IMG/VR virus record: IMGVR_UViG_2541047946_000006
DNA length: 5,019 nt
Reading direction: 5' to 3' (one strand)
Source: a virus
Lineage: Duplodnaviria; Heunggongvirae; Uroviricota; Caudoviricetes
Shown piece after piece: positions 177 through 5,019 of this stretch. The first letter of the stretch is position 1; the number at the start of each line of letters is the position of its first letter. The notes beneath the pieces were generated by a model. The model worked only from the letters and a program-made list of their open reading frames with translations, was not told the origin of the DNA and did not search any database. The position numbers and the translations under genes are program-made.

Positions 177-672
177 ATCCAGCTTTTTGTTGGTATTGCT
201 GTCGATACGCAAGTTTGAAAGCAATTGCTTTTTCTATAAGTTCGTCAGTTTCACGATCCACTACGGCAGGATCAGCAAAAAGCAGTCCGGACTCCACCAC
301 ATCGCCATATTCTTTGTTTAACCCGGCGATCATGCACGTGATGCTTTTTCCGTCAGTAATTTCACGATACAACCTGAAATCATTAATCCGGATAGCCTCC
401 ATAATTGCAGGCACTAGCGCCGTGAACTTTTCACGCTTATCCCTGGTGTCGATAGCCTTCCAGCGTTCAAATATCTTCACTCGATTAACGCCAAGCGCTC
501 GCTGATCAATCGCGCCACCTTCATATGTGACACGCTGAACATCGATGTTCGGGCGCTCTTTCAAAGCCCAGAATGCTTCAGTGATTAATATCGTCGCCTG
601 CTCCTGTGTCATTCCTGGTCGACATATCCAGGCATCCAGAGCCTCACGAGCCTGTTCAGGAGTGATTTTCAT
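148..672 (-). CDS. YdaT-family-like (CII-analogue) early regulatory protein, probably 3'-truncated: codons 1-165 are native, the last 9 codons and the stop come from IS sequence
   Basis: 174-aa ORF from the six-frame track with protein-like composition. It lies directly downstream of the cro-like dicC on the same strand, overlapping it by 17 nt (656-672), which is the position cII/ydaT-type genes occupy in lambdoid prophages. The IS boundary at 176/177 falls inside codon 166. The family assignment is from recalled similarity and is the weakest call here. Confidence 0.5.
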
Positions 673-886
673 TGTTCAACCGCCCCGCCCGCTTCGTCTT
701 ACGATATTCATCATAAACTTTGGGATCATACTGAAGCTCCCCGCCAGATGCCTCCTGTAGACGCATCGCGCGACCTTCGGGAACTAAATCCCCTTTCCAG
801 CTATAAAGCGAAGCCAAACGAATACCTGCTGCTTGTGCAAGTTTTGTTTTTGAACCGAAATACAAAAGAGCGTCAGTTTTAAGCAT
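656..886 (-). CDS. dicC: DicC, Cro-like helix-turn-helix regulator of the Qin-type prophage
   Basis: 76-aa product [76 protein letters not shown], recognised as DicC. It is divergent from dicA. An AAGGTG Shine-Dalgarno sits 6 nt upstream of the ATG (complement of 884-886). Stop is TGA (complement of 656-658). Confidence 0.9.
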   Translation of the reverse strand: MLKTDALLYFGSKTKLAQAAGIRLASLYSWKGDLVPEGRAMRLQEASGGELQYDPKVYDEYRKTKRAGRLNNENHS

Positions 887-969
887 TTAAAACACCTTTA
901 TTGTTAGTCATAACTAACAAGATAGATGTTAACAAAAACATAGTCAATACGATTTAGCATTAGCTAACT
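887..969. promoter_or_regulatory. Divergent dicC/dicA control region containing two palindromic operator-like sites
   Basis: Perfect 20-bp palindrome TTGTTAGT-cata-ACTAACAA at 901-920. Second inverted repeat TTAGC-atta-GCTAA at 954-967, ending 3 nt before the dicA ATG. Both share a TTAG(T/C) core. No confident -35/-10 pair for dicA could be placed, and dicA has no clear Shine-Dalgarno, so its transcript may have a very short leader. Confidence 0.6.
919..947 (-). promoter_or_regulatory. Candidate sigma-70 promoter for dicC (PdicC)
   Basis: On the - strand: -35 TTGACT (complement of 942-947), 17-nt spacer, -10 TATCTT (complement of 919-924). The 901-920 palindrome overlaps the -10 and predicted start. 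Positional inference only. Confidence 0.45.
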
Positions 970-1377
970 ATGGAAACAAAAAATTTAACTATCGGCGAAC
1001 GCATCAGGTATCGTCGGAAAAACCTCAAACACACCCAAAGGTCTCTTGCTAAAGCCCTGAAAATCTCCCATGTGTCTGTATCACAATGGGAACGGGGTGA
1101 TAGTGAACCTACAGGGAAGAACCTTTTTGCCCTCAGCAAAGTATTGCAATGCTCACCAACATGGATTCTATTTGGCGATGAAGACAAGCAACCAACACCA
1201 CCTGTTGAGAAGCCAGTTGCCTTATCCCCCAAAGAACTAGAGCTCCTTGAGCTGTTTAATGCACTGCCAGAATCAGAACAGGATACCCAGCTCGCCGAAA
1301 TGCGAGCTCGAGTAAAAAACTTCAATAAACTCTTTGAAGAATTACTAAAAGCCCGTCAGCGGACAAATAAAAGATAA
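970..1377 (+). CDS. dicA: DicA, CI/c2-like XRE-family repressor of the dicB operon
   Basis: 135-aa product beginning METKNLTIGERIRYRRKNLKHTQRSLAKALKISHVSVSQWERGDSEPTGKNLFALSKVLQCSPTWILFGDEDKQ, recognised as DicA, with an N-terminal HTH. ATG at 970, stop TAA at 1375-1377. Confidence 0.9.
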   Translation: METKNLTIGERIRYRRKNLKHTQRSLAKALKISHVSVSQWERGDSEPTGKNLFALSKVLQCSPTWILFGDEDKQPTPPVEKPVALSPKELELLELFNALPESEQDTQLAEMRARVKNFNKLFEELLKARQRTNKR

Positions 1378-1412
1378 CATCATCAATGAGTTATCTTTTA
1401 CTACATCAATCA

Positions 1413-1466
1413 TGTTAGCTATAGCATACAAAATCACTTGACCGATATGTTAGTCATGGCTAATCT
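1413..1466 (+). promoter_or_regulatory. Candidate dicB-operon promoter (PdicB) with flanking and overlapping operator-like sites
   Basis: -35 TTGACC (1438-1443), 17-nt spacer, -10 TAATCT (1461-1466). Operator-like TGTTAGCTATAGC (1413-1425, containing palindrome GCTATAGC) lies upstream of the -35. TGTTAGTCAT (1449-1458), identical to the half-site at 902-911, overlaps the spacer. This is the layout expected for a DicA-repressed promoter. Confidence 0.5.
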
Positions 1467-1543
1467 TGTTTGCATCAACACACCGCACGGTGTTCTCAGC
1501 AAACAGTTCCGCTACCCCAGCGTTAAGGGGAAATGAGGTCAGC

Positions 1544-1699
1544 ATGGATACTATCGATCTTGGCAACAACGAATCTCTGGTGTACGGCGTGTTTCCAAAC
1601 CAGGACGGCACGTTCACCGCAATGACGTATACCAAAAGCAAAACGTTTAAAACCGAAAATGGTGCCCGTCGCTGGCTGGAAAGAAACTCAGGTGAGTGA
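1544..1699 (+). CDS. ydfA: YdfA, small Qin-prophage protein of unknown function (51 aa)
   Basis: ATG at 1544 with GAGG Shine-Dalgarno at 1535-1538; product MDTIDLGNNESLVYGVFPNQDGTFTAMTYTKSKTFKTENGARRWLERNSGE; stop TGA 1697-1699. The track ORF 1466-1699 is the same frame with an unsupported N-terminal extension. Confidence 0.8.
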   Translation: MDTIDLGNNESLVYGVFPNQDGTFTAMTYTKSKTFKTENGARRWLERNSGE

Positions 1700-1700
1700 T

Positions 1701-2417: not shown

Positions 2418-2475
2418 TTTCTGGTGACGTTTGGCGGTATCAGTTTTACTCCGTGACTGCTCTGCCGCCCTTTTT
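2418..2475 (+). ncRNA. dicF: DicF small regulatory RNA (Hfq-dependent sRNA that represses ftsZ among other targets); ends approximate to +/-5 nt
   Basis: Sequence TTTCTGGTGACGTTTGGCGGTATCAGTTTTACTCCGTGACTGCTCTGCCGCCCTTTTT recognised as DicF. It sits in the expected slot between ydfC and dicB and ends in a GC-rich stem plus T5 tract. The mature 5' end is made by processing and cannot be fixed from sequence alone. Confidence 0.85.
2433..2475 (+). terminator. Intrinsic (Rho-independent) terminator forming the DicF 3' end
   Basis: Stem GGCGG(2433-2437)/CCGCC(2465-2469), extendable with a G-U pair, an A-U pair and an inner CAG/CTG stem across a small internal loop, followed by C and TTTTT (2471-2475). 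dicB lies downstream, so termination must be partial. Confidence 0.6.
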
Positions 2476-2644: not shown

Positions 2645-2833
2645 ATGAAAACGTTATTACCAAACGTTAATACGTCTGAAGGTTGTTTTGAAATTGGTGT
2701 CACTATCAGTAACCCAGTATTTACTGAAGATGCCATTAACAAGAGAAAACAAGAACGGGAGCTATTAAATAAAATATGCATTGTTTCAATGCTGGCTCGT
2801 TTACGTCTGATGCCAAAAGGATGTGCACAATGA
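2645..2833 (+). CDS. dicB: DicB, cell-division inhibitor (acts with MinC)
   Basis: 62-aa product MKTLLPNVNTSEGCFEIGVTISNPVFTEDAINKRKQERELLNKICIVSMLARLRLMPKGCAQ, recognised as DicB. GAGGA Shine-Dalgarno at 2633-2637, 7 nt before ATG 2645; stop TGA 2831-2833. The track ORF 2540-2833 is the same frame with an unsupported N-terminal extension. Confidence 0.9.
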   Translation: MKTLLPNVNTSEGCFEIGVTISNPVFTEDAINKRKQERELLNKICIVSMLARLRLMPKGCAQ

Positions 2834-3113: not shown

Positions 3114-4892
3114 ATGAGTAAAGTCTTTATTTGCGCCGCTATTCCTGACGAACTGGCAACAAGGGAAGAAGGCGCTGTGGCTGTAGCCACAGCCATTGAA
3201 GCTGGCGACGAACGCCGTGCTCGAGCAAAATTTCACTGGCAATTCCTGGAACATTATCCGGCTGCTCAGGACTGCGCTTATAAATTTATTGTCTGCGAGG
3301 ATAAACCTGGCATACCCCGCCCTGCCCTCGATTCATGGGATGCTGAATATATGCAGGAAAACCGCTGGGATGAGGAGTCTGCTTCTTTTGTCCCGGTTGA
3401 GACTGAATCCGATCCGATGAACGTCACTTTTGACAAGCTGGCCCCTGAAGTACAGAACGCTGTCATGGTTAAGTTCGACACATGTGAAAACATCACCGTT
3501 GATATGGTTATTAGCGCACAGGAATTGTTGCAGGAAGACATGGCAACATTCGACGGACATATCGTTGAAGCGTTGATGAAAATGCCAGAAGTTAACGCCA
3601 TGTATCCGGAGCTTAAGTTGCACGCCATTGGGTGGGTTAAGCATAAATGTATTCCTGGTGCTAAATGGCCCGAAATTCAGGCAGAGATGCGCATCTGGAA
3701 AAAACGTCGCGAAGGTGAACGCAAGGAAACCGGAAAATACACGTCTGTTGTTGATCTCGCCCGCGCCAGAGCCAATCAACAGTACACTGAAAATTCAACA
3801 GGAAAAATCAGCCCGGTCATTGCTGCCATTCATCGCGAATACAAGCAGACATGGAAAACACTGGATGACGAACTGGCCTACGCTCTCTGGCCTGGTGATG
3901 TGGATGCCGGAAACATTGACGGCAGCATCCATCGCTGGGCAAAAAAAGAAGTTATCGACAACGACCGCGAAGACTGGAAGCGTATCTCGGCATCAATGCG
4001 CAAACAGCCTGATGCCCTTCGCTACGACCGCCAAACTATTTTTGGCCTTGTCCGTGAGCGTCCGATCGACATTCACAAAGATCCCGTAGCACTGAACAAA
4101 TATATCTGCGAATACCTGACGACAAAGGGCGTGTTTGAGAATGAAGAAACAGACCTGGGCACTGTTGATGTTCTCCAGTCATCAGAAACACAAACTGATG
4201 CAGTGGAAACTGAGGTATCTGATATCCCAAAAAATGAAACCGCGCCGGAAGCTGAACCATCTGTAGAGCGTGAGGGGCCGTTCTATTTCCTCTTCGCAGA
4301 TAAGGACGGAGAAAAATACGGTCGCGCAAACAAACTCTCTGGTCTGGATAAGGCACTGGCTGCTGGCGCCACTGAAATCACAAAAGAAGAATATTTTGCC
4401 CGAAAAAATGGCACATACACGGGCTTACCGCAAAATGTAGATACCGCTGAAGATTCAGAACAACCAGAGCCGATAAAAGTTACCGCTGACGAAGTAAACA
4501 AAATTATGCAGGCAGCCAATATCAGCCAGCCTGACGCCGATAAGTTGCTTGCTGCATCACGTGGTGAATTTGTTGAAGGGATTAGTGACCCGAATGATCC
4601 GAAATGGGTTAAGGGGCTCCAGACCCGCGATTCTGTGAACCAGAACCAGCATGAATCGGAACGGAACTACCAAAAAGCGGAACAAAACAGTCCAAATGCG
4701 TTACAAAACGAGCCAGAAACGAAACAGCCTGAACCAGTAGCGCAACAGGAAGTGGAAAAAGTCTGCACCGCCTGCGGTCAGACCGGCGGCGGCAACTGCC
4801 CTGATTGTGGCGCGGTGATGGGCGACGCAACATACCAAGAAACTGAACCGCCCCGGGAATCCTGGAGACTAAACTTCCTGAGAAAGAGGTAA
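3114..4892 (+). CDS. RecE-family (exonuclease VIII)-like protein, N-terminal portion only (YdfE-like): about 576 native codons, then 15 codons and the stop supplied by the IS
   Basis: Long ORF with protein-like composition in the slot after the kil-like dicB, where lambdoid PL operons carry recombination genes. The C-proximal stretch [33 protein letters not shown] resembles what I recall from the central region of RecE, at moderate confidence. Start chosen at ATG 3114 (GAGG at 3101-3104, 9-nt spacer); the track's TTG at 3078 is less likely. The IS boundary at 4843/4844 falls inside a codon and the stop TAA 4890-4892 is IS sequence. No nuclease domain is present. Confidence 0.6.
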
Positions 4893-5019
4893 ACAGGATG
4901 ACTAAAAATACTCGTTTTTCCCCTGAAGTCCGTCAACGGGCAGTCCGTATGGTTCTGGAAAGTCAGGGCGAATATGACTCACAATGGGCGACAATTTGTT
5001 CCATTGCTCCAAAGATTGG
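4844..5019 (+). mobile_element. IS629-type (IS3 family) insertion sequence, transposase-proximal terminal segment; element continues beyond the right window edge
   Basis: Begins TGAACCGCCCCGGGAATCCTGGAGACTAAAC at 4844 and is the exact reverse complement of nt 1-176. It contains the OrfA start at 4898. Confidence 0.85.
4898..5019 (+). CDS. IS3-family transposase OrfA, N-terminal 40 codons only (runs off the window)
   Basis: ATG 4898 preceded by AAGAGG; translation [41 protein letters not shown], open to the window edge. Confidence 0.8.

Follow-up and report, generated by a model that had tools for sequence, protein, structure and literature searches.

The dic locus of Escherichia coli carries repeated palindromes in both intergenic regions beside dicA, which raises the question of whether they are the operators of a single switch and which proteins read them. 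The operators of this cryptic prophage decide whether the cell-division inhibitor DicB, the small RNA DicF and the lysis protein YdfD stay silent, and by holding them silent they matter for E. coli physiology. We analysed a 5019-bp stretch of DNA (the window) that is a Qin-type dic locus, with 99.7% identity to K-12 over 921 bp (640–1560) and 100% identity over the same interval to a second E. coli chromosome with annotated dicC, dicA and ydfA. Roughly 850 complete E. coli genomes carry the locus. The ends of the window come from an IS3-family element and form a perfect inverted repeat of 176 bp. With a probability of about 90%, we conclude that the repeated sites serve a P22-type prophage immunity switch, the Qin dic locus, as its OR-like and OL-like operators.

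The two genes at the center of the locus, dicC and dicA, are divergently transcribed with 83 bp between them (Table 1). DicC is 36% identical to P22 Cro. DicA matches Phage_CI_repr in addition to HTH_3, and all of its Pfam matches are of the HTH type; its alignment to P22 C2 is confined to the N-terminal 63 residues, with 59% identity to C2 residues 6–68. Pfam did not find in DicA the C-terminal S24 peptidase domain that, with its Ala-Gly cleavage site, marks an SOS-cleavable (LexA/CI) repressor. The remainder of the window holds the ydfABC-dicF-dicB operon and its neighbors.

Table 1 Genes, promoters and operator sites of the dic locus, with positions in the 5019-bp window.
Feature	Position	Strand	Description
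ydaT-like gene	148–672	minus	
dicC	656–886	minus	P22 Cro-like repressor; Pfam P22_Cro 1.7e-11; annotated as dicC in identical E. coli records
Oc, OR1-like operator	901–920		20-bp inverted repeat TTGTTAGTCATAACTAACAA; 18-bp core 902–919 TGTTAG-TCATAA-CTAACA; about −8 to +12 of dicCp
dicCp, PR-like promoter	919–947	minus	−35 TTGACT 947>942; 17-bp spacer; −10 TATCTT 924>919 (promoter scan)
OR2-like middle position	927–944		TGTTAACAAAAACATAGT; 5/12 mismatches to consensus; overlaps dicCp spacer and −35; collinear with P22 OR2
OR3-like site	952–969		ATTTAGCATTAGCTAACT; 3 mismatches; exact TTAG-N6-CTAA core; abuts dicA ATG at 970
Candidate PRM-like dicA −10	955–960		TAGCAT; assigned by homology with P22
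dicA	970–1377	plus	135-aa cI-like HTH_3 repressor; Pfam HTH_3 1.3e-16; annotated as dicA in identical E. coli records
Predicted OL2-like operator	1413–1430		TGTTAG-CTATAG-CATACA; 2 mismatches; ends 7 bp upstream of dicBp −35
dicBp, PL-like promoter of the ydfABC-dicF-dicB operon	1438–1466	plus	−35 TTGACC 1438–1443; 17-bp spacer; −10 TAATCT 1461–1466
Predicted OL1-like operator	1448–1465		TGTTAG-TCATGG-CTAATC; 2 mismatches; fills dicBp spacer; right-half CTAA overlaps −10
ydfA, ydfB, ydfC			genes in the window
DicF RNA	2419–2470		Rfam match
dicB	2645–2833		Pfam DicB
ydfD			gene in the window
RecE-like exonuclease gene			N-terminal part only in the window

The repeat that first draws attention to these regions is the 10-mer TGTTAGTCAT, found exactly at 902–911 and 1448–1457, two copies where 200 shuffles of the sequence led us to expect 0.01. 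As the original prediction had it, the first copy is enclosed in a perfect 8-4-8 palindrome, TTGTTAGT-cata-ACTAACAA at 901–920, which overlaps the dicC −10 located by the promoter scan. The second copy was rightly recognized and rightly assigned to the spacer of the dicB promoter, between TTGACC and TAATCT; its position had been given as 1449–1458, one base too far. The 10-mer itself had been mistaken for a half-site and comprises TGTTAG, the half-site proper, and the next four bases, which belong to the central spacer. Copies of TGTTAGTCAT with one mismatch are also present at 37, 113, 4898 and 4974, all in the IS ends, and we take these four to be unrelated to the operators.

A single frame, TGTTAG-N6-CTAACA, accommodates the sites in one register at 902–919 (no mismatches), 952–969 (3), 1413–1430 (2) and 1448–1465 (2). 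Two related elements in the original prediction, TGTTAGCTATAGC at 1413–1425 and TTAGC-atta-GCTAA at 954–967, were correctly located, and the latter shares its dyad center with the 18-bp frame at 952–969. The accompanying proposal that varying half-site spacings give graded affinities is wrong, as the four sites differ only in half-site match; this single spacing is a useful correction. Because the spacing is constant, any grading of affinity must stem from half-site mismatches or from the composition of the center. The order of half-site match, Oc (0 mismatches), OL1 and OL2 (2 each), 952–969 (3) and 927–944 (5), fits the published binding of DicA to Oc but not to Om or Oa alone, and a hierarchy of affinities that follows half-site match rather than spacing is plausible. 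The weak sites may be filled cooperatively or used preferentially by DicC.

Could such repeats be a functionless coincidence in AT-rich intergenic DNA? Short palindromes are common in DNA of this kind, and sites with 3–5 mismatches are individually unremarkable, since 1.69 matches to the 18-bp frame with at most 3 mismatches are expected in the window by chance. The copy numbers of the exact elements speak against it: besides the two copies of the 10-mer, the TTAG-N6-CTAA core is exact at three of the sites against 0.03 expected. Moreover, the two intergenic regions account for about 5% of the window and contain four of its five matches with at most 3 mismatches (binomial P about 3e-5). Together with half-sites that stay invariant while their centers vary, conservation across genera and published binding, these statistics refute a chance origin, to which we assign a virtually nil probability.

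The best-matching of the sites is known from experiment. The sequence at 901–920 is identical to the published Oc, given as 5′-TTGTTAGTCATAACTAACAA by Yun 2012, who mapped the dicC start by 5′RACE and found Oc to overlap the −10 (PMC3441716). In the window, Oc overlaps both the −10 and the +1 of dicCp. The Reg-Seq preprint annotates the DicA site at −8 to +12 of dicCp, and if this site is 901–920, the dicC start would lie at or near 912, in agreement with the −10. DicA repressed a reporter through Oc in vivo, a half-site change from A to C at window position 916 abolished binding and repression, and a 90-bp fragment was shifted in EMSA by crude extracts containing DicA (Yun 2012, PMC3441716). 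The promoter fragment could be cloned at high copy only with point mutations in Oc (PMC3441716), and such counter-selection on multicopy plasmids fits titration of DicA. Bound at Oc, DicA represses dicC and activates dicA (Yun 2012, PMC3441716).

The same repressor acts on the other side of dicA. Ragunathan 2023 describes operators resembling lambda OR and OL in both intergenic regions, citing Bejar 1988, and places dicBp upstream of ydfA, with a 22-fold rise on dicA deletion and relief of DicA repression by the antirepressor Rem (PMC10448788). The idea of one repressor at both control regions, with DicA repressing dicCp through 901–920 and the dicB-operon promoter upstream of ydfA, thus holds and had already been published; the comparative data below agree with it. 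DicC occupies both regions as well: its strongest ChIP-seq signal is at the dic locus, with peaks on both sides of dicA and the motif TT(A/C/T)G...C(G/A/T)AA, and it represses dicA 48–84 fold (bioRxiv 10.1101/2024.09.21.614188).

Between Oc and the dicA start lie two weaker sites, of which 927–944 is probably the published Om and 952–969 probably the published Oa. Yun 2012 states, without displayed data, that these other predicted operators are unbound by DicA in vivo (PMC3441716). Of the tripartite OR, only Oc is therefore established, since DicA failed to bind either Om or Oa in isolation. For the same reason, the original suggestion that dicA is autoregulated through 954–967 finds no support, since DicA alone is published as not binding the site next to dicA; the documented autoregulation is positive and runs through Oc. 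More plausibly, and by collinearity with P22, DicC uses 952–969 as an OR3-like site that overlaps the dicA promoter. No consensus dicA promoter passes the promoter scan. In P22, the PRM −10 TAAGAT occupies OR3 positions 4–9, with the c2 start site 4 nt ahead of the ATG; the dic equivalent of this −10 would be TAGCAT, and the dicA transcript would start near 966. By this equivalence, the dicA message may be nearly leaderless and a protein bound at 952–969 would shut off dicA as at OR3.

On the dicB side, the promoter hexamers fall under the threshold of the promoter scan, but they are collinear with those of the annotated P22 PL (TTGACC ... TAAATT). The ydfA transcript would start near 1473. 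Across 59 related loci, the −35 is invariant, as are positions 1, 2, 3 and 6 of the −10. The predicted OL2 and OL1 bracket this −35 at a start-to-start distance of 35–36 bp across the relatives examined. A precise comparative placement of these operators is useful, as the Reg-Seq authors class the DicA site at dicB as low-evidence and list its location as unknown. The published count of dicB-side operators is three (PMC10448788). Two could be placed here, and a third OL operator was not identifiable by sequence on the dicB side; 1388–1405 was considered and rejected, having 5/12 mismatches, overlapping the dicA terminator hairpin and not being conserved in a clade with 89% identity.

DNA looping between OR and OL was also considered. 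The distance from Oc to OL1 is 546 bp, or 52.0 helical turns, in the window and 819 bp, or 78.0 turns, in P22. Seven other loci gave 51.5, 52.1, 52.5, 54.2, 54.5 and 55.7 turns. Because helical phasing varies among the loci measured, the looping idea was dropped.

Conservation was assessed in loci gathered from E. coli genomes, GTDB genomes and IMG/VR, of which 59 aligned with at least 85% identity over window positions 640–1700. Changes were counted by parsimony on a neighbor-joining tree built from non-operator sites, so that the counts are to be read with the few informative sites in that tree, the inflation of homoplasy by recombination and the biased sampling of IMG/VR contigs in mind; a scan of genome contigs contributed no more than 6 loci, including 2 informative orthologues. 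Among the 59 loci, no change occurred at the 12 half-site positions of Oc or in the left half of OL1, and the OL2 half-sites changed twice. The right half of OL1 changed three times, each time in the two outer bases that it shares with the −10. The centers of the same operators changed 21 (Oc), 13 (OL2) and 16 (OL1) times. Per site, this amounts to 0.14 changes in the half-sites overall against 4.17 at the pyrimidine/purine (Y/R) positions of the centers; the coding values are 0.13 for dicC and 0.16 for dicA, and other intergenic DNA shows about 0.9–1.2.

The arrangement also extends beyond E. coli. In Citrobacter and Serratia rubidaea, with DicA identities of 73% and 64%, a three-position OR occurs together with two OL sites bracketing the −35; the flanks of the OL sites are unalignable between these genera and the window. 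The OL2 position is occupied likewise in Citrobacter, Serratia and the heteroimmune types described below. Half-sites that are near-invariant in 59 loci and kept in two further genera bear out the expectation that they would be more conserved across strains than their surroundings.

Conservation of the weaker sites could have another source. The stretches 927–944 and 952–969 and the right half of 1448–1465 might be conserved as promoter elements, which would leave Oc, possibly joined by the left halves of OL1 and OL2, as the only true repressor sites. These stretches do hold the −35 and spacer of dicCp, the PRM-like dicA promoter and the −10 of dicBp, and DicA is unbound at Om and Oa in vivo. 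The invariance extends over the entire 920–969, beyond the half-site positions (0 changes at 927–944 and 2 at 952–969 in 59 loci), and the region is conserved in Citrobacter; with 5/12 mismatches in Om, promoter elements could wholly explain its invariance. In addition, relatives whose immunity operators differ keep 952–969 nearly unchanged, and OL1 departs from consensus in its right half exactly where it forms TAATCT. Against this stand the exact TTAG-N6-CTAA core of 952–969, in register with the other sites and at the position of P22 OR3, and the occupancy of the intergenic region by DicC with its strong repression of dicA. Operator and promoter functions overlap in lambdoid switches, and both readings are compatible. 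We consider a purely promoter-based conservation of the weaker sites possible and, on balance, unlikely.

Who reads the sites is further constrained by heteroimmune relatives. Three other immunity types occupy the same chromosomal position with different operators, altered in parallel at OR and OL. One keeps TGTTAG...CTAACA with different centers; in another, OR reads TTGAGTTTTCTCAA and the two OL sites closely resemble it; in the O157-type, all three operators read CTTAG-N6-CTAAG. The HTH sequences of the repressor and the Cro-like protein differ by type; the −35 and leader, like the C-terminal regions of the proteins, are unchanged. Judged from the sequences, this covariation of operators with HTH is what immunity modules classically show.

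The covariation also bears on whether the main readers of the palindromes are the prophage repressors or a host factor such as the TetR-family YjdC or H-NS/Cnu. YjdC is enriched at the dic locus in ChIP-qPCR and interacts genetically with dicA and dicC, and the CnuK9E-H-NS complex antagonizes DicA at Oc (Yun 2012, PMC3441716). A fixed host factor would not, however, account for operators that change with the HTH helices of the adjacent cI-like and Cro-like genes, and this covariation argues against such a factor as the primary reader. The DicA-dependent binding at Oc has been demonstrated directly, and the DicC ChIP motif agrees with the TTAG...CTAA core. We regard reading chiefly by a host factor as highly improbable.

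We therefore return to a P22-type switch operated by DicA and DicC. In our model, a DicA dimer would read the 18-bp TGTTAG-YYATRR-CTAACA through its two outer hexamers. At Oc, which covers roughly −8 to +12 of the leftward dicC promoter, it blocks dicC and stimulates dicA. The predicted OL2 and OL1 lie on either side of the −35 and take up the spacer and −10; DicA bound there would silence ydfABC-dicF-dicB. Cro-like DicC binds the same regions and represses dicA, probably through the weaker 952–969 that overlaps the likely dicA promoter. Earlier publications cover the binding of DicA to Oc, the repression of both dicCp and dicBp, and the presence of DicC on either side of dicA; the common site frame, its conservation and its covariation with repressor type come from this analysis; the occupying protein and the filling order at OL1, OL2, Om and Oa are what we infer from combining them.

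The operators, their layout and the DicA–Oc interaction are known from work published between 1986 and 2024, so that confirming them adds little. The operators themselves are ordinary, and the previously unreported feature is the hypervariability of their centers. In 204 operator instances from 68 distinct haplotypes, every center reads YYATRR. Position 1 is T in 102 and C in 102, position 2 is C in 168 and T in 36, positions 3 and 4 are A and T in all 204, position 5 is G in 110 and A in 94, and position 6 is A in 110 and G in 94. All 12 Y/R positions of the centers are polymorphic, compared with 126 of 1049 other positions. The 4.17 changes per site at these positions are about 11–14 times the rate at fourfold-degenerate sites of dicC (0.30) and dicA (0.38); the value for ydfA is 1.38. 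In 1061 bp, the two most variable 6-bp windows are operator centers, and the third center ties for third place. Even within the commonest, otherwise identical background of about 900 bp (10 loci), three center haplotypes occur.

The 50 inferred center changes are all transitions, 29 from GC to AT and 21 from AT to GC, against a background of 176 transitions and 86 transversions. Deamination of cytosine in a hairpin loop was considered as the cause and rejected; with changes in both directions, a purely deaminative hot spot is not supported. Nor is variability a general trait of uncontacted centers: in the sister loci of the O157-type (46 distinct sequences) and L003-type (52), the centers are nearly invariant, so that hypervariability belongs specifically to the Qin type. 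Possible causes are selection, a mutational hot spot and relaxed constraint limited to transitions. In P22, uncontacted central base pairs alter repressor affinity about 13-fold, from 4.3 nM for an A-tract to 57.6 nM for a C-containing center (PMC4267663), and natural variants of the dic centers could by the same effect tune repression. As a tentative proposal that we would not favor on present evidence, the transition-only center may be a natural affinity rheostat, read only by DNA shape as in the P22 and 434 repressors and repeatedly retuned by selection or a local mutational hot spot, which would set the tightness of silencing of the toxic dicB operon strain by strain. If tuning or a hot spot is at work, these centers would let indirect readout and operator evolution be studied in a simple natural system.

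Among known systems, the closest is Qin of K-12 itself, whose genes, promoters and operator positions are all as in the window. Its control regions are the same except for two single-base differences upstream of OL2, and it is without the inverted IS3-family ends that bound the copy studied here. The Oc, Om and Oa operators of K-12 Qin and those of its dicB promoter were reportedly described by Bejar, Cam and Bouche in 1986 and by Bejar, Bouche and Bouche in 1988.

Lambda OR and OL likewise combine a divergent repressor and cro with operators overlapping PR, PRM and PL, and the lambda repressor also blocks lytic promoters and activates its own gene in a bistable switch; the protein families differ at the sequence level, and the lambda operators are 17 bp with another sequence. 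The PaaR2/YdaS region of CP-933P in E. coli O157:H7 has its repressor gene at the genomic position of dicA. As in dic, equally spaced 18-bp palindromes lie at PRM/PR with a second set at a PL-like promoter, and footprints of both the repressor and the Cro-like protein have been obtained on these palindromes. CP-933P differs in its repressor sequence, its half-site consensus GTTTAGTAA, its four inverted repeats and a downstream toxin-antitoxin pair.

A further comparison is with P22 immC. In both systems, homologous HTH domains read 18-bp dyad operators via their outer half-sites. The OR layout is 18+5+18+7+18 bp in P22, with OR3 abutting the c2 ATG, and 18+7+18+7+18 bp in dic, with 952–969 abutting the dicA ATG. 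The OL layout is common to both, with OL2 followed by the −35 TTGACC and then OL1, 35 bp from start to start. The half-sites differ, TGTTAG in dic against ATTTAAG/ATTAAAG in P22, and, unlike in P22, DicA alone is published as not binding the OR2-like and OR3-like sites. DicA is also without the C-terminal S24 autocleavage domain of C2 and is relieved by the antirepressor Rem, not by RecA. The dic locus shows the divergent cI/cro genes, dyads of a shared consensus, a second OL set, HTH covariation and conserved half-sites that characterize P22-type immunity.

The three DicA operators share the frame TGTTAG-N6-CTAACA, and their 6-bp centres are hypervariable among near-identical prophages. We infer 50 changes at these centres, all of them transitions (50/50), corresponding to 4.17 changes per site versus 0.30–0.38 at the fourfold sites of dicC and dicA. 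Among the same prophages, the half-sites and the central AT of the centres are invariant. When we looked for hypervariable centres in the heteroimmune sister types, which carry different operators and a different repressor HTH at the same chromosomal position, none were seen.

Features of the dic locus (window positions except for locus L094)
Feature	Position	Remark
DicA operator centres, 6 bp each	908-913, 1419-1424, 1454-1459	All YYATRR without exception
DicA residue 43	1096-1098	Directly after the recognition helix
Hairpin across the dicA stop codon	1368-1400	Arms TAAAAGATAAC / GTTATCTTTTA
Leader from dicBp to ydfA	1470-1543	
Perfect 176-bp inverted repeat	1-176 and 4844-5019	Both window ends
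Related dic locus L094	2187-2908	Escherichia phage PhiR42_1, PV340562.1

DicA residue 43 is glycine (WERGD) in the window and in K-12. An aspartate (WERDD or WERDE) occupies this position in the E. coli clade of 89% identity and in a copy from a MAG, as it does in Citrobacter, in Serratia and in all the other immunity types. One related dic locus, L006 (JAIIUG010000151.1), lies on a 2.5-kb contig binned to a Collinsella sp. MAG; it is an E. coli locus of 99% identity and almost certainly a binning contaminant.

The hairpin spanning the dicA stop codon has a predicted RNA minimum free energy of −11.4 kcal/mol (z = −4.9) and overlaps the sole candidate third OL operator. Members of the clade with 89% identity differ on both sides of the inner stem of this hairpin (AACGCA...TGCGTT), which gives them a longer stem followed by TTTTT. 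This hairpin is likely to be a terminator of dicA.

The end repeats contain the end and the initial codons of a transposase of the IS3 family (IS1203-like) and bracket the entire dicC-dicA-dicF-dicB module. The ydaT-like ORF runs with its 3′ end into one copy, and the RecE-like exonuclease ORF (3114-4892) is cut short by the second. The exact IS junction of the window is found in no complete E. coli genome of our collection. The cI encoded by PhiR42_1, a 48.7-kb phage genome record with E. coli ECOR13 as its source, is 100% identical to DicA; next to it are encoded a Cro resembling DicC and a YdaT-like cII, along with replication genes. Besides the cryptic prophage, a phage genome that is apparently complete therefore also has the Qin immunity type.

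The leader between dicBp and ydfA is near-identical in all heteroimmune types and conserved in part in Citrobacter and Serratia. It contains the palindrome ACACCGCACGGTGT (1480-1493) as well as CCCC-AGCGTTAA-GGGG. This leader may constitute an antitermination or processing signal, because the equivalent position in P22 is occupied by nutL.
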